Assembly (NCBI GenBank): GCA_963555985.3
Contig: OY820591.1
Location: 288,001-352,000, forward strand
DNA: 64,000 nucleotides
DNA from: Dehalococcoidia bacterium
GTDB taxonomy: Bacteria; Chloroflexota; Dehalococcoidia; Bin125
Direction: 5' to 3'
Every line of letters begins with the position of its first letter. Positions within the stretch are counted from its first letter, which is position 1. Both the position numbers and the translations under genes were made by a program. Below the pieces are notes generated by a model. That model worked only from the letters and a program-made list of their open reading frames with translations. It ran no database searches and had not been told where the DNA came from. Shown one piece after another: positions 38,337 to 58,763 of this stretch.

Positions 38337-39431
38337 TCAATCGCGAGGTTTCGGTTCGGCGTGTGAGTCGGCCGGGTCCACTGTGTCGGGCAGGAATTGC
38401 CGGTACCAGCGACGCATGGCGTGCACCGGGCCGTCGTCGCGGCAGAGCACGGGACGAGCGCGGTAGACCTTGTTCTCCCAGATCTCGATGTCTTGTTGCC
38501 ACTGGGACACCCAGCCGCCGATCACGTACGAGACCAACAGTCTGGGCGCATGTCGATCAGCGAACCAGTGGAAGTGGACTCTCTGTTCCAGCGGCCCGAC
38601 CGGGAGAAGGGTCTGATACATCGCAATCTCGCCCACTTTGGGGATCGAGAAGCGAAAGATGATCACGCCGCCCGGTCCCCAGAACGACACCCGCGCATGT
38701 ACTTTGACTTGATCGATTCGGCGACCAAACAAGTTGAGCACCGCATCATCGAGTAGATGCATGGCCCAGGGACGCTCGTCATCGAGCATCCAATCGATTG
38801 AGTGTTCGACCTGGATTCCGCGTATGGGGATCGGTGTCCAGGGAATCAGGAACTGACCGTGCAGCGGCTGAAAGTGAGCGGAGTCGGCCACATTCTCGGC
38901 GAACTCGATGATGTGCATCCCTACGCGGCCGCCATCGTGGTGACCGCGATAGACGAAACGGCCGTCGTCCACTTCCTCAATCCGGGGGACATCGTAGGGA
39001 GGCGGGAGATCGTCGCCGTAGGCCGAGCGGTCGTGACGGTGATAGGCGAAGATCTGCCCGTGGACTTCTTGTACGGGAAACGGCCTGGTCAGGACGCCCG
39101 TGGGCGGGTGCTCGCTGTAGGGGATGTGCCGGACGCGACCATCGTTGTCGAATTGCCAGAGGTGGAAGGGGCACTCGATGCAGTCGCCGCGAACGCGCCC
39201 CAGCGCGAGGTTGGTTCCGAGATGCGGGCAGAAGGCGTCCATCAGATGTACGCGGCCGCTGTCCTGTTCGCGCCAGAGGACGAACTGACCGCCGAGGCAC
39301 TCGAGGTAGCGAGTCTGGCCGCGACGCAGCGATGCCGAGGCTGCCAGTCGATACCAGCCCTCGGGGTAGGGGTGGGGGTAGCTCGCCACTCGCGGCGCAT
39401 CGGAGACGCGCGGGGCGCGGCGGCGAATCAT
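38337..39431 (-). CDS. Rieske non-heme iron oxygenase, Neverland/DAF-36 or KshA type, copy 1
   Basis: PYPEGWY, CPHLG..CPFH Rieske ligands, ENVADSAHFQPLH iron site, DIEIWENK..DGPV..RRWYRQF. Confidence 0.85.
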   Translation of the reverse strand: MIRRRAPRVSDAPRVASYPHPYPEGWYRLAASASLRRGQTRYLECLGGQFVLWREQDSGRVHLMDAFCPHLGTNLALGRVRGDCIECPFHLWQFDNDGRVRHIPYSEHPPTGVLTRPFPVQEVHGQIFAYHRHDRSAYGDDLPPPYDVPRIEEVDDGRFVYRGHHDGGRVGMHIIEFAENVADSAHFQPLHGQFLIPWTPIPIRGIQVEHSIDWMLDDERPWAMHLLDDAVLNLFGRRIDQVKVHARVSFWGPGGVIIFRFSIPKVGEIAMYQTLLPVGPLEQRVHFHWFADRHAPRLLVSYVIGGWVSQWQQDIEIWENKVYRARPVLCRDDGPVHAMRRWYRQFLPDTVDPADSHAEPKPRD

Positions 39432-45308: not shown

Positions 45309-46418
45309 CTAATCGCGAGTCCAGGCTTGGCCGTCCGTGTCCGCTTTGGGCAGGAATTGTTGATACCAGCGGCGCATCTCGTAGACCGGGCCGTCGTCTC
45401 GGCAGAGCTTCGGCTGAGGGATGTGGACCTTGTTCTCCCAGATGTCGACATCTTGAGGCAACTGCGAGGCCCAGCTTCCGATCACGTACCAGACCAACCA
45501 GCGAGGCAGTCTGCGGTCGGCGAACCAGCGGTAGTCCACCTGCTGTTCGAGCGGGCTGATGGGGAGGAAAGTCTTGTACATGGCGATTTCGCCTCGGCCA
45601 GGGAGGTCGAAGCGAAAGAGCAGCAGGCTGCCGGGGCCGAAGTAGGAGACGCGCACGCGGGCTTCGGTGCGCATGGACAGGCGGCCAAAGATTCGCAAGA
45701 GCACGTAGTCATCGAAGTGCATCAGCCAGGGATGGTCCTCGTCCAGCGTCCACTTGGCCGTGTGCACGATCTCAATGCCCGGGATCGGCACTTGCGTCCA
45801 GGGCACTCGAAACTGCCCGTGCAGCGCCTGGAAGTGGGCCGTGTCCACCGCGTTGTCGGCGATCTCGATGATGTGCATCCGCACGCGGCCGACATTGCGA
45901 TGACCGCGCATGAGGAAACGTTCCTCGTCTACTTCGGGGATGCGCGGGACATCATACGGAGGCGGTGAAGCCTCATCGTCCGATGAACCGTCGCTGCGGT
46001 GGTAGAGGAACAACTGACCGTGGACTTCTTGGAGCGGATACGTCCGTGCCAGGACGCGGTTCGGAGGCAGGTCGCTGTAGGGAATATGCGCGACGCGGCC
46101 ATCTCCGCTGAATTGCCAGAGGTGGAACGGGCACTCGAGACAGTCGCCGCGAACACGTCCGCGAGCGAGGTTGGCGCCCAGATGCGGGCAGAAGGCGTCC
46201 AGCAGATGGATTTCGCCGCTGTCCCGTTCACGCCAGAGGACAAAGCGCTTGCCCAGGCATTCGAGCTCACGAATCTCGCCGGGGCGAATGGAGTCGGTTG
46301 ACGCCAGTCGATACCAGCCCGTGGGGTAGGGATGGGGGTAGCCCTCCGCCTGTTGCGTTTCCCAGCGCGCTTCCAGAAGCGGGGAGTTGCCGTCGCGTCG
46401 GCGCCTGAGACTCAGCAT
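45309..46418 (-). CDS. Rieske non-heme iron oxygenase, Neverland/DAF-36 (sterol 7-desaturase) or KshA type, copy 2
   Basis: PYPTGWY, CPHLG..CPFH, DNAVDTAHFQALH, DVDIWENK..DGPVYEMRRWYQQF; start overlaps the SMT stop. Confidence 0.85.
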   Translation of the reverse strand: MLSLRRRRDGNSPLLEARWETQQAEGYPHPYPTGWYRLASTDSIRPGEIRELECLGKRFVLWRERDSGEIHLLDAFCPHLGANLARGRVRGDCLECPFHLWQFSGDGRVAHIPYSDLPPNRVLARTYPLQEVHGQLFLYHRSDGSSDDEASPPPYDVPRIPEVDEERFLMRGHRNVGRVRMHIIEIADNAVDTAHFQALHGQFRVPWTQVPIPGIEIVHTAKWTLDEDHPWLMHFDDYVLLRIFGRLSMRTEARVRVSYFGPGSLLLFRFDLPGRGEIAMYKTFLPISPLEQQVDYRWFADRRLPRWLVWYVIGSWASQLPQDVDIWENKVHIPQPKLCRDDGPVYEMRRWYQQFLPKADTDGQAWTRD

Positions 46419-47473
46419 GGCGTCTCTTCGTCAGCGGGGGGCTTTCGAGCGTGGATGAGGAAGCTGGGGGTGAAGATTTCGAGTTGGCCGGCTTCGACGA
46501 GGGCGTCGGCGGCGATGTTGAGGAAGCTTGCGGTTTCGCTAGTTCCCGCCGGGGCGATGCGCAGCGTTTCGAGGAAATTCGTGACGGCCGCGGTGAAGCG
46601 GCGACCGACGGGCGTCCGCGCCCATGAGCTCAGGGAGAAGTCGCGTCCCTGCAGCGCCATGTACCAGGGCGTGTCGGGGTTGCCGTTGGCGGCCTGCTGG
46701 TCGATGGCCTGGATGATCTCGAAGCCGGCCTGTCGAACGACCTCCACATGCTGTTCGGTGGTGGGCAGGTCGGGCACGGCGTTGGTGGTCTCGATGCGGT
46801 TGCGGATGTCCTGATGCTGGGGATTGTCGGGGTCGAAGCGATCGGTGAGGCACCAATCGACGATCGCCATTTCGGCGCCGGGCTTGAGTAGGCGGTAGAG
46901 CTCGCGGAAGAGGAGCAGGTTGTTGGGGGCGTGGCAGACGGCCTCGAAGGAGTAGATGGCGTCGAAGGTCTCGTCCTCGAGGGGGACGTCCATGAAGTTG
47001 GCGTAGAGGAAGTGGCAGGTTTGTTGCAGTCCGGCCTTGTCGACCATGTGTCGGCCGCGCTCGATCTGGTAGGTGTTGTAGTTGATGCCGGTGATGTTGG
47101 CGCCGGTCGCTTTAGCGATCGTGACCAGCGGCCCGCCGACGCCGCAGCCGAGATCGGCGACGTCCATACCCGGCTTGAGCCGCAGGATCTCTCCGATTTC
47201 TTCGTCGTGCCGTCGCTGGGAGGCGGCCAGGTTCTCTCCGGGCCGGCGGGGCGAGAAGTGGAAGGTCGAGCCCCAGCCGAATTCGTAGAACCGCGTGACG
47301 GCGTCGTAGAAGCGGCTGACCAGCCTGGGCTGTTCGGCGATTCTCGCGGCGTCTTCCTGCGATTCGCTCAGTTCCTTGATCTGCTGGTAGTCGTGCAGCG
47401 CCTCGCGGATTCCGCTGTTCGGGTTGGCTTCACCGCTCGGTGGGGTGCGGGTCTCCGGTTGGACTTTGGCCAT
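46412..47473 (-). CDS. smt: Sterol C24-methyltransferase (ERG6/SMT-like)
   Basis: SMT region I FYEFGWGSTFHF, SAM motif DLGCGVGGP, FEAVCHAP (cf. IEATCHAP), C-terminal PWY and IFTPSFLIHARKP. Confidence 0.9.
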   Translation of the reverse strand: MAKVQPETRTPPSGEANPNSGIREALHDYQQIKELSESQEDAARIAEQPRLVSRFYDAVTRFYEFGWGSTFHFSPRRPGENLAASQRRHDEEIGEILRLKPGMDVADLGCGVGGPLVTIAKATGANITGINYNTYQIERGRHMVDKAGLQQTCHFLYANFMDVPLEDETFDAIYSFEAVCHAPNNLLLFRELYRLLKPGAEMAIVDWCLTDRFDPDNPQHQDIRNRIETTNAVPDLPTTEQHVEVVRQAGFEIIQAIDQQAANGNPDTPWYMALQGRDFSLSSWARTPVGRRFTAAVTNFLETLRIAPAGTSETASFLNIAADALVEAGQLEIFTPSFLIHARKPPADEETPC

Positions 47474-47620
47474 GGCCGCCTCTCGCGAGTCTTTGCGTTC
47501 GAGCCATGATAGCGTCCTGAATATTCACCTCAAATTCATTACAAGAGATTCAGAACTGCAAGCAAGACACGATACCGATCCTCTACCGCTCAATGATCGG
47601 TACAGGTTGACTGTCAGCTT

Positions 47621-53818: not shown

Positions 53819-54925
53819 ATGAAGATTACCGATATCACTTGCACCCCGCTGACGATCGGCAAGAGCCTGCTCAGGGTCGTGACCAACGCCGGGGTCGAGG
53901 GCTGGGCTGAGGTACCGGGCGGCAACTACAACACGAGCTCGAAGGCGGCTGTCTTCCAGGCGTACCTCGAGACCGACATCAAGCGAGCCCTGTTGGGTGA
54001 AGACCCGCGCCTGATCGACCGTCACTGGGAGACGCTGGCGCTGGGTCGGGGCGAACGCGCCTACAAGCTCCCCGGCTGGGTGGTTGGAGTGGTGGACGTG
54101 GCGCTTTGGGATCTGCTGGGTAAGGAGACCGGCCTGCCGGTGCATACGCTGATGGGCGGCGCGCGCCGCACCACCATTCCGCTGTACTGGAGCACCGGCT
54201 CGGGCTGGCGGATGCAGCCGGAAGAGATGCTGGCGCTAGTCGAGGCGGGCAAGGAACAGGGCTACGAGTCCTTCAAGATTCGGATGGACTGGCGCGGCTG
54301 GCGACAGGACATTGATCCGGAGAAGGACTTCCGGATCTTCAAGTTGGTGCGCGAGTACCTAGACGAAGGCCAGTACCTCGGCTTTGACGCCAACAACGGC
54401 TACTCGGTCTCGACGGCGATCCAGCAGGGACGGCGTTTCGAGGAGCTAGGTATCGACCACTTCGAGGAGCCGATCCCGCACTACGATCTGCTCGGGCTGA
54501 AGCAGGTGTCCGACGCTCTGGACGTGGCGGTCTCGGCCGGGGAGCAGGACGCTTACCGCTGGTGGTTCGAGCACCTGGTGCTGCTCGGCAACGTGGACAT
54601 CCTCCAGCCGGACATTCTCAACGCGGGCGGCCCCAGCGAGGTCAAGCGCATCTTCGAGATGGCGACGGTGCTGAACAAGCCGGTGATGCCGCATAGTCCG
54701 CAGGCTGGGATCAACTCGATGGCGTCGTTGCACGTCTACGCCACCGTGCAGAACGCTACCCGTCCGCATGAGTACTCGGAGGAGTTCTCTGGCCCGATTG
54801 ATGACGTGGCTGACCTGTACGGCGAGTCGGTGATTCCGAAAGACGGCTGCATCCAGCTCAGCGACAAGCCGGGCTACGGGATCGAGTTGAACGAGGCGGC
54901 GGTGCAGCGGTTGACGGTGCGCTAG
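53819..54925 (+). CDS. Mandelate racemase/muconate lactonizing enzyme family protein
   Basis: DVALWDLLGK, KIR, DAN, EEP, GE, QPD, PH motifs. Confidence 0.9.
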   Translation: MKITDITCTPLTIGKSLLRVVTNAGVEGWAEVPGGNYNTSSKAAVFQAYLETDIKRALLGEDPRLIDRHWETLALGRGERAYKLPGWVVGVVDVALWDLLGKETGLPVHTLMGGARRTTIPLYWSTGSGWRMQPEEMLALVEAGKEQGYESFKIRMDWRGWRQDIDPEKDFRIFKLVREYLDEGQYLGFDANNGYSVSTAIQQGRRFEELGIDHFEEPIPHYDLLGLKQVSDALDVAVSAGEQDAYRWWFEHLVLLGNVDILQPDILNAGGPSEVKRIFEMATVLNKPVMPHSPQAGINSMASLHVYATVQNATRPHEYSEEFSGPIDDVADLYGESVIPKDGCIQLSDKPGYGIELNEAAVQRLTVR

Positions 54926-55347
54926 GTCGTCTCGTATTCCCACGGGTTGATGATCTCGATGCCTAGTCCCTCGAAGTCGCTCACATTGCGAGTCACGACC
55001 GTCATCTCGTGGGCCATCGCCGTGCCAGCGATCAACGCGTCCGCGATACTGATCGTTCGTCCGCTGCGGCTTGCCCGCGCCCGCAGTACCGCCGCCAATT
55101 CGGCCGCCAATCTGTCCAGTGAAACGATGCGATTCTCGAATGCTGAGAGGAACTGTACGTGTGTGGCATACAGTCGCTCACGGCGGCGACCGTCGGGAAG
55201 CCGTTGCAGTCCGAACTCCAATTCATGCAAGACGACCGCCGAGATCCATTGGTCGGGATGCTCCAGGATGAACGCGGCCACGCGAGGGTTGGGGTCATCG
55301 TTCGCGAGCTCTGAGACGACATTGGTGTCCAGTAGATAGCCACTCAC
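54922..55347 (-). CDS. vapC: VapC-like PIN toxin
   Basis: YLLDTNVVSE, HEL, DALIAGTA, VTRNVSDF, INPW. Confidence 0.9.
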   Translation of the reverse strand: MSGYLLDTNVVSELANDDPNPRVAAFILEHPDQWISAVVLHELEFGLQRLPDGRRRERLYATHVQFLSAFENRIVSLDRLAAELAAVLRARASRSGRTISIADALIAGTAMAHEMTVVTRNVSDFEGLGIEIINPWEYETT

Positions 55348-55709
55348 TAGTTGTCCGGATCCGCCGCGTCAAACGCGGCCCAATCCTCTTCTGTCCAGTC
55401 GGCATAGGGAATTGGACGGTTCGACCCTCGTTCGTGCGGAATGTCGTCATAGATCCCGCGCGGCATCATCTGAAGCAAGTACTGACCTATGGACATTTGC
55501 GGCGGCTCGCCCGAGGGCGAGACGTCCTCCGACACTTGGGGCGACGGCTCACGCTCGAGCCAGACCTCCTCTGGCACGACGACATAGCGCTTGCGCCTGC
55601 CGATCCGTTGCGGGCCTTCGCTCTCGGCCAGGCGCAGAATCTCGGACAGCTTGGCCTTCGCTTCGGCGATGGTCCAGACGGGACGTGCTTCATGTTCTCG
55701 AAGGCTCAA
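55347..55709 (-). CDS. Phd/YefM-type antitoxin
   Basis: WTIAEAKAKLSEILRLAESEGPQRI; abuts vapC. Confidence 0.85.
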   Translation of the reverse strand: MSLREHEARPVWTIAEAKAKLSEILRLAESEGPQRIGRRKRYVVVPEEVWLEREPSPQVSEDVSPSGEPPQMSIGQYLLQMMPRGIYDDIPHERGSNRPIPYADWTEEDWAAFDAADPDN

Positions 55710-55855: not shown

Positions 55856-57499
55856 CTAATCCGCCAGCACCGGCTCCTGGGCTTCGCTCATGGTGAAGCC
55901 CTCGTAGCTGTTGGCGGCGATTTGGTCGCAGCGCTCGCGGTAGGGGCCGACGCCTCCGGCGTAGGGCATGAAGACCCGGGGCTTGCCGGGGATGTTGGCT
56001 CCGAGGTACCAGGAGTCGGCGAGCATGTACATCGTCTGGTCGGCGATGTCATACACGTGCTGCACCCAGTCGACCTCTGCTTGCGGATCGGCATCGACCA
56101 CGTCGACGCCGCGCTCGCGCAGGTACTCGATGAAGTCGGAGATCCATTCAACGTGCTGCTCGATCGAGACCGGCATGTTGCTCAGCACCGACGGGCTCTG
56201 CGGACCGGTGATCATGAACATATTGGGGAAGTCGGCGGTGGCGAGACCGAGATAGGTCGTCGGGCCGTCGGTCCACTTCTCCTTCAGCTCGCGTCCGTTG
56301 CGGCCGCGGATGTCCATCTTGAAGAAGGTGCCGGTCATTGCGTCGTAGCCGGTGGCGAAGACGATCAGGTCGACCTCGTACTCGTTGCCGTCGGCGGTGC
56401 GGAGGCCGGTCGGGGTGATCTCCTCGATCGGGAAGTGGCGGATGTCGACTAGGTCGACGTTGTCGCGGTTGTAGGTGTCGAAGTAGTTGGTGTCGATCAA
56501 GGCCCGCTTGGAGGCGAAGGGGTGGTCGCGCGGGAGCAGCTTCTCGGCGGTCTCCGGGTCCTTGACGATCTCGCGGATTTTGCCGCGGATGAACTCGGCC
56601 GCGGTGTCGTTGGCGCGGCGGTCGGTGGAGATGTCGGCGTAGGCGCCGAAGAGGAAGTTGAACCCGCCCTTCTTCCAGAGCGCCTCGTATGTCTGGGTGC
56701 GCTCTTCATCCGTCACTTCCAGGGCAGATTTTTCAGAGAACTCGTAAGGCATGCCAGCAGCCGAGAGCTTCGACTTCTGCATGATCTCGGCGTAATTGGC
56801 CTTGACCTCCTTGAGGAACTCCTGGTCGACGGTCTCGTGCCGGGCCGGGATCGTGTACTGCGGCGTGCGCTGGAACACGGTCAGGTGCTTGCATTCGCGG
56901 GCGATCACGGGGATCGACTGGACGCCGCTGGAGCCGGTGCCGATCACGGCGACGCGCTTGCCTTCGAACGAGACGCCCTCGTGCGGCCAGGCGCCGGTGT
57001 GGTGCCAGTCGCCCTCGAACGAGTCGAGGCCGGGAATTTTCGGAATCTGACCGGTCGAGATGCAGCCGATCGCGGTAATCACGTACTGAGCGGTCACGCG
57101 ATCGCCCTGGTCCGTTTCCACCTGCCAGAGGCCGGTGTCGTCGTTGAAGTGGGCGGAGGTCACGCGCGTGTTGAACTGGATCCCGCTGCGCAGGTCGAAG
57201 CGGTCGGCGACGTGATTGAGGTATTCCAGAATCTCCGGCTGCTCCGGATACTTGCCGCTCCAGTTCCACTCCTGGAGCAGGTCGTCGTCGAAGGAGAAGC
57301 AGTAGATGTAGCTCTCCGAGTCGCAGCGCGCGCCGGGGTAGCGGTTCCAGAACCAGGTGCCGCCGACGCCGTCGCCGGCTTCGTAGACCTGGGTCGTCAT
57401 GCCCAGGTCGTCGCGCAGCTTCTTGAGCATGTACATGCCGGAGAATCCGGCTCCAATCACGACGGCGTCGACATGTTTGGTCGTGGCGTTCTCAGACAT
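55856..57499 (-). CDS. Type I Baeyer-Villiger monooxygenase (cyclohexanone/phenylacetone/steroid monooxygenase family)
   Basis: GAGFSG, GGTWFWNRYPGARCD, BVMO fingerprint FEGDWHHTGAWP, GTGSSG, ATGYD. Confidence 0.93.
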   Translation of the reverse strand: MSENATTKHVDAVVIGAGFSGMYMLKKLRDDLGMTTQVYEAGDGVGGTWFWNRYPGARCDSESYIYCFSFDDDLLQEWNWSGKYPEQPEILEYLNHVADRFDLRSGIQFNTRVTSAHFNDDTGLWQVETDQGDRVTAQYVITAIGCISTGQIPKIPGLDSFEGDWHHTGAWPHEGVSFEGKRVAVIGTGSSGVQSIPVIARECKHLTVFQRTPQYTIPARHETVDQEFLKEVKANYAEIMQKSKLSAAGMPYEFSEKSALEVTDEERTQTYEALWKKGGFNFLFGAYADISTDRRANDTAAEFIRGKIREIVKDPETAEKLLPRDHPFASKRALIDTNYFDTYNRDNVDLVDIRHFPIEEITPTGLRTADGNEYEVDLIVFATGYDAMTGTFFKMDIRGRNGRELKEKWTDGPTTYLGLATADFPNMFMITGPQSPSVLSNMPVSIEQHVEWISDFIEYLRERGVDVVDADPQAEVDWVQHVYDIADQTMYMLADSWYLGANIPGKPRVFMPYAGGVGPYRERCDQIAANSYEGFTMSEAQEPVLAD

Positions 57500-57593
57500 C
57501 TTCGTTCTCTCTCTGGTGCGCTCAATCGAGCTGGCTGGACCGGGTGCTCTGTACGGGCGCTCGGTTCGGGGCGCGTCGTTCAGTGCGATTCTA

Positions 57594-58544
57594 CTACCGC
57601 GCAAGCGCGGCATGTTGGACGACGTGGCGGCGAATCGCTTTCACGACCTGCTGGAAGCCGCGTTCGCTGCCCGGCAGCATCAGCAAGGCGAAGAAGGCGT
57701 GCATCTGGCGGTCGTGCCGCTGGAAGTCGACCGGTACGCCGGCGTCTTCGAGCCGCTGGGCATATTCCTCGCCCTCGTCGCGCAGCGGGTCGTGCTCGGC
57801 GGTCAGCACGACGGCCGGGGGGAGACCGGAGAGGTCGGGTGTGTAGAGCGGCGAGGCCTCGGGTTCGGTGCGCCGTGAGACATCGGGGATGTAGTGGTCG
57901 AAGAACCAGATCATCGAGTCCCTCGTCAGCAGGAGCTGGTTCTCCGGGTCGAGGTACGAGGGCCGGTCGAAGTTGGCGTCGGTGACGGGGTAGATCAGGA
58001 CCTGCATCGCGATCTTGGGTCCGTTGCGGTCGCGTGCGCGGATCGCCATGACGGCGGAGAGGTTGCCTCCCGCGCTGTCGCCGGCGACGATGAGCGGCAG
58101 CTCGCGTCCGGCGATCTGGTCCATGTGCGCCGCCGTCCACTCCAGCGCCGCGTACGAGTCATCGACTGCGACCGGGTAGCGATGCTCGGGCGCGAGGCGG
58201 TAGTCGACCAGCACGACCGCGCATGATGTCCGCTCGGCGAGCTTGCGTCCGAGCGCGTCGGACTCGTCAATCGAGCCGACCACCCAGCCGCCGCCGTGGT
58301 AGTAGACGATCACGCCGGCGGGAGGCTCGATCGGCACGAGCACGCGAACCTGGAAGCTCCCATCGGCCTGCTCGATCGTGTGTTCCTCAACCCGGGCCAT
58401 GTTCGGGGCAGGACCGTTGAGCGCGGCCAGGTTCGCGCGGTAGGCGCGCGCGTCTTCCGGAGTGCGCTCGTTCATCGGCCTGGCGTCTTCGCCTCCCCGG
58501 AGCGTTTCTTCGACGAAGAGTGTCGTCGCAGGATCAAGGGTCAC
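57594..58544 (-). CDS. HSL-family esterase/lactone hydrolase
   Basis: HGGGW, YRLAPEH, GDSAGG, DPLRDEG, HAF; upstream of the BVMO. Confidence 0.9.
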   Translation of the reverse strand: MTLDPATTLFVEETLRGGEDARPMNERTPEDARAYRANLAALNGPAPNMARVEEHTIEQADGSFQVRVLVPIEPPAGVIVYYHGGGWVVGSIDESDALGRKLAERTSCAVVLVDYRLAPEHRYPVAVDDSYAALEWTAAHMDQIAGRELPLIVAGDSAGGNLSAVMAIRARDRNGPKIAMQVLIYPVTDANFDRPSYLDPENQLLLTRDSMIWFFDHYIPDVSRRTEPEASPLYTPDLSGLPPAVVLTAEHDPLRDEGEEYAQRLEDAGVPVDFQRHDRQMHAFFALLMLPGSERGFQQVVKAIRRHVVQHAALAR

Positions 58545-58763
58545 GCACTGCTCCAATCGTCTGCTGAACGGTCAATGCTGCAAGGGTACAGACGCGGCGT
58601 ACGAGCGCGAGTTGGGCCGCTAGCAGGTCTCCAGCGCCGCGCCAATCCGCGAGCGCGATCGGAGCATTGGCGTCGGCACTTTTCGGCGGCTCGAACACGT
58701 ACGGGTCACAGCAGCCGGTCGATGGGATTGGAGCCATCCGCGCAAACGAAGCTTGGCTACGCG

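Follow-up and report, generated by a model that had tools for sequence, protein, structure and literature searches.

Which sterols would a bacterium modify with an overlapping pair of genes for a sterol C-24 methyltransferase (SMT) and a Rieske oxygenase, and what would the two enzymes make of them, when its genome encodes no oxidosqualene cyclase (OSC)? The question is raised by a stretch of 64,000 nucleotides from a Dehalococcoidia bacterium (GenBank assembly GCA_963555985.3, contig OY820591.1; the whole stretch is called the window here), which corresponds to C1:288001-352000 of the genome that we designated G000 (3.33 Mb in 11 contigs, main contig 3.15 Mb; 96.4% complete with 7.5% contamination). 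A preliminary description of the window had pointed to the two genes, which we call the cassette, as a possible sterol-tailoring operon. We concluded that the pair is a real and conserved operon, predicted to tailor sterols by a new combination of two known kinds of enzyme.

The position of the pair, its common strand and the 7-nt overlap were confirmed by reading the open reading frames (ORFs) and the shared string ATGCTGA directly (Table 1). The overlap suggests that translation of the two genes is coupled, and overlaps of 4 nt join the corresponding genes in relatives (loci L006, L008, L009, L042, and L052). The promoter-like match upstream of the SMT gene is weak evidence for a real promoter: one such site was found, and 0.4 were expected in shuffled sequences.

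Domain analysis of the SMT gave Pfam matches to Sterol_MT_C (PF08498) at 77 bits (cut-off 21.7) and to Methyltransf_11 (PF08241) at 68 bits, that is, a class I S-adenosylmethionine (SAM) methyltransferase domain followed by a Sterol_MT_C domain as in SMTs. The sterol-specific signatures reported for this protein were all found in its translation, namely FYEFGWGSTFHF, DLGCGVGGP, FEAVCHAP, and IFTPSFLIHARKP; Region I (GWGSTFHF) lies at residues 66–73 and Region II (DLGCGVGGP) at residues 107–115. According to the preprint of Brown and Welander (2025, 10.64898/2025.12.19.695621), 25 residues are common to all SMTs active in vitro, with 84-GWGxxFHF-91 and 125-DxGxGxxGP-133 as anchors in yeast numbering. 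Both anchors are shifted by the same -18 in the cassette SMT, and at this shift 18 of the 25 residues could be placed; all 18 are present. Sites 81 and 83, taken from the same preprint, are present too and bring the number of sites placed in this way to 20, among them Y74, T78, G147, Q154, D189, E195, and G217 in addition to the motif residues. The remaining seven sites (yeast 268, 286, 333, 341, 352, 357, and 359) were placed by what we take to be their context in yeast ERG6, and their residues are present as well. The active-SMT sites are kept in seven of seven SMTs of the Dehalococcoidia pairs (clade I), save for single Y74W and Y81F changes. Position 83 (yeast) is Phe, as in propylating SMTs. 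The residue at what we take to be yeast position 249, an alignment that serves as a lead only, is Asn, and propylation needs Gly there. The change G249N was reported to retain ethylation and to abolish propylation (10.64898/2025.12.19.695621, available part). SMT homologues with 60–81% identity come from metagenome-assembled genomes (MAGs) of Chloroflexi and Gammaproteobacteria, and several are named sterol 24-C-methyltransferase by JGI. We infer that the cassette SMT methylates a delta-24 sterol at C-24.

The second protein matched the Pfam families Rieske (72.9 bits) and KshA_C (88.9 bits) and carries HPYPTGWY near its N-terminus. In a 36-sequence alignment, the 2Fe-2S ligands C77, H79, C96, and H99 and the iron-site residues D192, H195, H200, and D323 were invariant, and the latter four align to D178, H181, H186, and D304 of KshA (numbering from the accessible part of PMC4064121). 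The preliminary description had seen no N-terminal membrane anchor, which agrees with the Kyte-Doolittle hydropathy: the best 19-residue mean in the first 80 residues was 0.54, vs. 1.80, 1.89, and 2.56 in three eukaryotic homologues, and no anchor of the Neverland kind was detected by this measure. Pairwise scores to the cassette oxygenase were 289–328 bits for protist homologues and 143 bits for KshA5. An identity as SdmA was rejected, as NF052579 reached 46.5 bits (cut-off 600) and covered the N-terminal half only.

To place the oxygenase, 1.84 billion protein representatives were scanned with it, and 418 proteins were retrieved at E ≤ 1e-30; many of the best matches are 400–470 aa long, with an N-terminal extension of 70–115 residues. 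Twenty of these matches were looked up: seven have eukaryotic names, one has a JGI name only, and 12 are nameless. The eukaryotic names comprise the EukProt entries Clim (which we take to be Corallochytrium), Gefionella, Heterolobosea sp., Rhodelphis, and Syssomonas, and the NCBI entries Folsomia candida "cholesterol 7-desaturase" and Amphibalanus amphitrite "cholesterol 7-desaturase nvd-like". In the main tree (IQ-TREE, 66 rows, LG+G4; the ultrafast bootstrap was not fully settled) a clade of 52 rows with 100/100 support united the bacterial family to which the cassette oxygenase belongs with each of the seven named eukaryotes. KshA formed a 100/100 clade of its own, and a second bacterial KshA_C family, to which the third paralogue of this genome belongs, also fell outside. 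A quick tree of 127 rows had a matching topology. Members of the bacterial family form a single clade (95/93), which is nested among N-terminally extended sequences. The earlier suspicion that the Rieske protein is more Neverland-like than KshA-like was thus well taken, and its membership of the Neverland clade, apart from KshA, is supported by these trees.

The operon reading supposes that the adjacency is not peculiar to this contig, and it proved to recur, far more often than chance would give, in five sister-genus genomes and in all 12 loci of a distant clade. Of 401 genomes sampled from the class, 61 have SMT homologues (E ≤ 1e-30) and 17 have Rieske matches; seven of the latter are close (at least 54% identity) and belong to this genome and six genomes of genus g2, and the other 10 are N-terminal-only matches in family f53, one of which (in G244, flagged as unpublished) supports none of our claims. 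An SMT gene directly adjoins a Rieske gene in G022, G060, G218 (two pairs), G271, and G357, and G309 has its Rieske gene (54%) and SMT genes on separate contigs. Titled Dehalococcoidia/Chloroflexota loci, which overlap these genomes and are not independent of them, have the SMT gene directly upstream of the Rieske gene in four of six cases (L005, L006, L008, and L009). Two Myxococcota and two Sphingomonadales homologues have no adjoining SMT gene.

A metagenome scan with the family alignment yielded 80 loci, which were checked for an upstream SMT gene by tblastn. It lies directly upstream in 12 of the 12 loci L042–L053 (Rieske proteins 35–41% and SMTs ∼40% identical), and none was detected directly upstream in the other 68; 21 rows of the Rieske tree with metagenome and titled loci are marked as having <900 nt of upstream sequence. 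L028 has a C-terminal SMT fragment 1.2 kb upstream. The lists of the best 120 Rieske and the best 120 SMT homologues share 14 length-matched contigs, which suggests more co-located pairs as a lead only. The surroundings of L042–L053 consist of unrelated genes (argB/argD/argF, ClpX-like ATPases, an outer-membrane efflux protein, and AsmA), and these loci suggest diderm hosts. In the Rieske tree of 94 rows (L058, L094, and L099 dropped as short or fused) the 12 loci make up a clade with support of 100, and the Dehalococcoidia pairs make up another. The two SMT-linked clades are split by well-supported branches in the 66-row tree, which requires at least two changes, and 0% of the bootstrap trees had them as one clade. 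The SMT tree (36 rows) has both Rieske-linked SMT clades monophyletic at 100, with weak deep nodes (80/68), and its inner subclades mirror those of the Rieske tree; by this agreement the pair is inherited as a unit. The pairing would either have arisen twice or be old with repeated losses, and either reading argues for a functional link.

The distant clade (clade II, L042–L053) has features of its own. Its SMTs have an altered Region I: yeast position 83 is His or Gln in them, 3 of 11 carry G84A, and 7 of 11 carry G86A/S; two of the altered positions are among the residues kept in all active SMTs, and the substrate of these SMTs may differ. A FAD_binding_4 gene directly follows the Rieske gene in one subclade (L044, L046, L049, and L050, with a fragment in L051; 4–5 of the 12 loci). 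Atlas placed this gene beside clusters automatically named delta(24)-sterol reductase, and such names serve as a lead only. No homologue of this DHCR24-like gene was found in genome G000.

We then asked where the sterols would come from. Neither an OSC nor a squalene epoxidase had been seen in the window, and none was found in the whole assembly either. By its scores (781 bits to TIGR01507, and 267 bits to osq_cycl vs. a cut-off of 851), the single cyclase of the genome is a squalene-hopene cyclase, located in a hopanoid-type locus (Table 1) whose HpnD-like synthase scored 236 bits, below the cut-off of 279. The squalene epoxidase domain (PF08491) had no match in the assembly, and orthologues of the SMO-OSC, CYP51, ERG24, SdmA, and SdmB of relatives were absent from it, as tblastn returned only paralogue-level matches of 25–30%. 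An OSC-like gene (745–757 bits, in a frame of 1146–1277 aa) is present in five of the five sister-genus genomes with the cassette (G022, G060, G218, G271, and G357). In G022 and G357 it is a squalene-epoxidase/cyclase fusion, clustered with an SdmB-like dehydrogenase and a C14-type ERG24; G022 has in addition an SdmA-like Rieske/VanA_C protein, and G357 a cytochrome P450 (P450) in the CYP51 position. The cassette of G022 is ∼230 kb away from this sterol cluster. Genes that flank the cluster in G022 lie far apart in G000, and a clean deletion was not traceable. Throughout the class sample, OSC-like genes (E ≤ 1e-120) were counted in 15 of the 401 genomes, being present in 12 of the 61 SMT-bearing genomes and missing from 49. 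SMT homologues (33–46% identity) without a sterol cyclase span genera, with 18 of 22 genomes in g12 and nine of nine in g27.

Since this genome is without the sterol cluster, the cassette would act on imported sterols here; it probably tailors self-made sterols in the relatives and imported, probably host-derived, sterols in this bacterium. The scavenging that the preliminary description had envisaged fits this genome, which has no OSC or epoxidase, but it does not extend to the cassette in general, as sister genomes carry a de novo sterol cluster. Likewise, the genome-wide search that it had suggested bore out the absence of OSC and squalene epoxidase and gave no reductase partner. A link to a host, perhaps a sponge, may be indicated by a GPP34-P450 fusion and a sterol-sensing MMPL transporter at a distant locus (Table 1). 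As far as the accessible text of Ferreira et al. (2025, PMC11706023) goes, the fusion architecture is reported only from sponge symbionts; this is the sole evidence on lifestyle.

We favour, with somewhat better than even confidence, a two-gene coupled sterol-tailoring operon that joins a C-24 SMT to a Neverland-clade oxygenase with probable C7(8) desaturase activity and works on imported sterols in this bacterium. The SMT would alkylate the side chain of a delta-24 sterol at C-24 with SAM, and the soluble oxygenase would most likely introduce a double bond at C7(8) of the B ring; 24-alkylated sterols of the delta-7 or delta-5,7 type would result. In the sister genus, whose genomes have the bacterial sterol cluster, the substrates would be sterols made by the cell itself. 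From the sequence we infer what either enzyme does, the C7 regiochemistry, how the steps are ordered, the electron donor, and where the sterols come from.

Several points weigh against this reading. SMTs require a delta-24 olefin, and cholesterol-type host sterols are without one. A KshB-type reductase was not found in the genome, in which PF00175 gave one weak match of 26 bits. The eukaryotic anchors of the oxygenase tree are named by homology, and none is an experimentally characterised Nvd, DAF-36, or DES7; the arthropod Nvd proteins scored 166–168 bits (31–33% identity), barely above the 143–156 bits of KshA-type proteins, so that the Neverland grouping rests on the tree. One cassette-type SMT gene (G218:C25) has no Rieske gene downstream, and in the close relatives L004 and L007 no SMT gene accompanies the Rieske gene, nor was a remnant of one detected upstream even at E = 10. 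Finally, the completeness of 96.4% and the contamination of 7.5% limit the call that the sterol cluster is absent.

Among other explanations, the Rieske enzyme could act on the sterol side chain, either making the delta-24 bond for the SMT or oxidising its 24-methylene product. Such a role would explain why the SMT and Rieske genes travel together, and it would suit their tight pairing in two non-sister clades, the DHCR24-like side-chain reductase gene after the Rieske gene in 4–5 of the 12 clade-II loci, and the second paralogue 6 kb off, which could divide the labour. It also draws on Capsaspora owczarzaki, for which the accessible text of Najle et al. (2016, PMC4967820) names the enzyme that turns cholesterol-type sterols into delta-24 olefins as missing and unknown, so that there is room for a side-chain role of the bacterial Rieske enzyme or its paralogue. 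We consider this unlikely, since Nvd, DAF-36, and DES7 (at C7) and KshA (at C9; PMC4064121, accessible part) all act on the B ring, and the sequence carries no sign of a flipped substrate. It is improbable that the cassette is a self-sufficient sterol-salvage module, in which the Neverland-type enzyme or the paralogue would supply the double bond for the SMT. Rather unlikely as well is a cassette that is a decaying leftover, devoid of substrate after loss of the SMO-OSC cluster, or one that acts on self-made sterols beside a cluster that is present but unassembled. The cluster is indeed found in five of the five cassette-bearing sister genomes and missing only here, from an assembly of 96.4% completeness in 11 contigs; yet neither ORF is broken and each catalytic and motif residue is kept, all five cluster genes are missing together despite the 3.15-Mb main contig, and SMTs without OSC are common (49 of 61 SMT-bearing class genomes).

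The substrate of the pair could also be a triterpenoid other than a sterol (squalene, hopene, or a hopanoid): genes for HpnD, HpnE, a polyprenyl synthase, and a squalene-hopene cyclase are present in the genome, and squalene-methylating SMT-like enzymes are known from a green alga. This seems quite improbable to us, as orthologous cassettes co-occur with the sterol cluster in five of five relatives, neither the sterol-binding Region I nor the residues of active sterol SMTs have been lost from the SMT, and the oxygenase is placed within the sterol-acting Nvd clade. That the Rieske protein is a KshA-type 3-ketosteroid 9-alpha-hydroxylase for steroid degradation is very improbable. It does match KshA_C, its best solved-structure matches are KshA enzymes, and a steroid-monooxygenase-like Baeyer-Villiger monooxygenase (BVMO) and an esterase are encoded 9–11 kb away. 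However, KshA identity was rejected on a score of 143 bits to KshA5, vs. 562 bits for the genuine KshA of a Rhodococcus plasmid, whose gene is surrounded by acyl-CoA dehydrogenase, VOC, and hydrolase genes. Known KshAs are ∼60% identical and contact the ring through V176, Q204, Y232, M238, N240, N257, F301, and W308 (PMC4064121, accessible part). The alignment of the cassette oxygenase to M. tuberculosis KshA was limited to its N-terminal 176 and last 37 residues, leaving the central substrate region unaligned; V176 is replaced by A190 and F301 by L320, W308 is kept, and KshA residues 204–257 fall within the unaligned stretch. Neither KshA-level identity nor the set of ring-contacting residues was found in the cassette oxygenase. 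The KshA clade is split off at 100/100, and in the genome tblastn gave no match to an HsaC-like gene, nor was a KshB-type reductase found.

Around the cassette, the direct neighbours encode amidohydrolases, DUF7002, a permease, and CoA-transferases, none of which is a sterol gene; a convergent amidohydrolase gene lies 14 nt from the end of the Rieske gene. The second Rieske paralogue is ∼6 kb from the cassette; in the tree, it and the second paralogue of L005 stand as sister to the SMT-linked Dehalococcoidia clade. The BVMO matched phenylacetone monooxygenase at 671 bits and steroid monooxygenase at 617 bits; it and the esterase are 50% and 44% identical to the BVMO and the hydrolase beside KshA on the Rhodococcus plasmid. 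The window further holds a toxin-antitoxin pair and, close to its right end, a long Rieske/Ring_hydroxyl_A oxygenase gene, which is next to the P450 in G022 too. The P450 to the right of the window is not a CYP51, its best solved relatives being 6gmf and a CYP125 ancestor (208–215 bits), and in the stretches of five relatives that were examined it adjoins the reductase in G000 and G022 only. The ERG4/ERG24-family reductase reached 114 bits to the MaSR1 sterol reductase 4quv and is 76–87% identical in four sister genomes. It was dropped as sterol evidence because family members from different phyla, Acidimicrobiaceae and Dadabacteria among them, share at least 68% identity, and the reductase may not be sterol-specific.

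Table 1. Cassette, paralogues, and other loci of the genome (positions are those of the window unless a contig is given).
Feature	Position	Strand	Basis or content
Sterol C-24 methyltransferase (SMT/ERG6-type), 353 aa, first cassette gene	46412..47473	-	Sterol_MT_C + Methyltransf_11
Soluble Neverland-clade Rieske non-haem iron oxygenase, 369 aa, second cassette gene	45309..46418	-	Rieske + KshA_C
7-nt overlap of SMT stop (TGA) and Rieske start (ATG)	46412..46418	-	Shared string ATGCTGA, read from the sequence
Weak sigma-70-like promoter match, 33 nt 5' of the SMT start	47506..47533	-	9/12 consensus matches
Second Neverland-clade Rieske paralogue, 364 aa, without linked SMT	38337..39431	-	Rieske + KshA_C; 62% identity to the cassette oxygenase
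PIN/Phd-type toxin-antitoxin pair	54922-55709	-	
Type I BVMO, then Abhydrolase_3 esterase	55856-58556	-	
Rieske/Ring_hydroxyl_A oxygenase, 564 aa	62224-63918	+	∼190-residue N-terminal extension
CYP125-like P450 divergent from ERG4/ERG24-family reductase	G000:C1:352322-354858 (L026:2322-4858)		0.3-2.9 kb right of the window end
Hopanoid-type locus L003	G000:C1:3884-11281		HpnE, HpnD-like synthase, GNAT, squalene-hopene cyclase, polyprenyl synthase
Third Rieske/KshA_C paralogue locus	G000:C1:2688108-2694118 (L027:8108-14118)		Paralogue, divergent 682-aa GPP34-P450 fusion, 814-aa MMPL transporter with sterol-sensing/Patched domains

A coupled operon of a C-24 SMT and a Neverland-clade oxygenase would bear on how sterols and steranes are assigned to their makers. 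Side-chain-alkylated steranes are read as eukaryote or sponge biomarkers, a reading that active bacterial SMTs already complicate. If our reading is true, a mobile operon lets symbionts, even those that make no sterols, rewrite host sterols in the side chain and in the nucleus, and the cassette oxygenase would give biochemists the first Neverland-family protein that is bacterial, soluble, and easily expressed. The cassette would also be a testable source for the delta-5,7 24-alkyl sterols that are reported to dominate in cultured Ircinia cells; in the accessible text of PMC4210886, cells of Ircinia muscarum had ∼90% delta-5,7 sterols (7-dehydrocholesterol and ergosterol as well as 7-dehydrositosterol). 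The cluster-less genome and the full-cluster sister genus offer a natural experiment on imported vs. endogenous substrates. Were the cassette instead a self-sufficient salvage module, it would fill the enzyme gap between cholesterol and ergosterol, and symbionts making 24-alkylated delta-5,7 sterols from host cholesterol-type sterols would shape sponge sterol profiles and sterane signals directly.

The closest functional parallel to the proposed operon is in a eukaryote. According to the accessible text of Najle et al. (2016, PMC4967820), Capsaspora owczarzaki co-expresses a Rieske C7-desaturase, an SMT, a C22-desaturase, and ERG4 and converts cholesterol that it has taken up to ergosterol; as proposed here, a Rieske C7-desaturase and an SMT are used jointly on sterols that are taken up and not made. 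The Capsaspora genes are dispersed and co-regulated and include a P450 C22-desaturase and ERG4, whereas the present ones form a bacterial two-gene operon. The SMTs of uncultured and sponge-symbiont bacteria (Brown et al., 2023, PMC10070321; 10.64898/2025.12.19.695621) belong to the same family as the cassette SMT and share its domain pair, Regions I and II, active-SMT residues, and Phe83. They have been described alone or with OSC and sdmAB, whereas the cassette SMT stands in an operon with a Neverland-type oxygenase in an OSC-less genome. The words "Rieske", "desaturase", "Neverland", and "Chloroflexi" have 0 occurrences in the main text and seven searchable supplements of Brown et al. (2023, PMC10070321).

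With Neverland, DAF-36, and DES7 the cassette oxygenase shares a 100/100 clade, the cofactor ligands, and the PYPxGWY start, but it is bacterial and soluble, has only 31–33% identity with its arthropod counterparts, and is produced from an operon that also holds an SMT gene. KshA (PDB 2ZYL and 4QDC) belongs to the same fold family (Rieske and KshA_C domains) and has the same iron ligands and the C-terminal QDVxIWxNK...RRWYxQF motif; the cassette oxygenase differs from it in its separate clade, its divergent central substrate region, and a setting without a KshB-type reductase or catabolic context. The sterol clusters of sponge symbionts (the ERG24-CYP51-LSS "CSGs" of Kelly et al., 2022, PMC9531527, and the Melophlus msb locus, PMC7074536) have their counterpart in the cluster of the sister-genus genomes, and SMTs are enriched in the same symbiont communities; the msb locus contains an SdmA/B-type pair and an SMT (PMC7074536). 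The cassette differs in that it lies apart from the cluster, its Rieske enzyme is not SdmA, and this genome has no cluster. Nine supplements of Kelly et al. (2022, PMC9531527) contain no mention of Rieske, K14938, or 7-desaturase. Literature searches on SMT, Rieske/Neverland, bacteria, and symbionts returned no published description of an SMT-Neverland pairing, and the top-ranked papers on Neverland-type cholesterol 7-desaturases included no bacterial enzyme. Three points are new here: an OSC-less genome contrasts with a sister genus that has OSC, the bacterial oxygenase is placed with named eukaryotic Nvd-type proteins, and the link to an SMT occurs in two non-sister clades.

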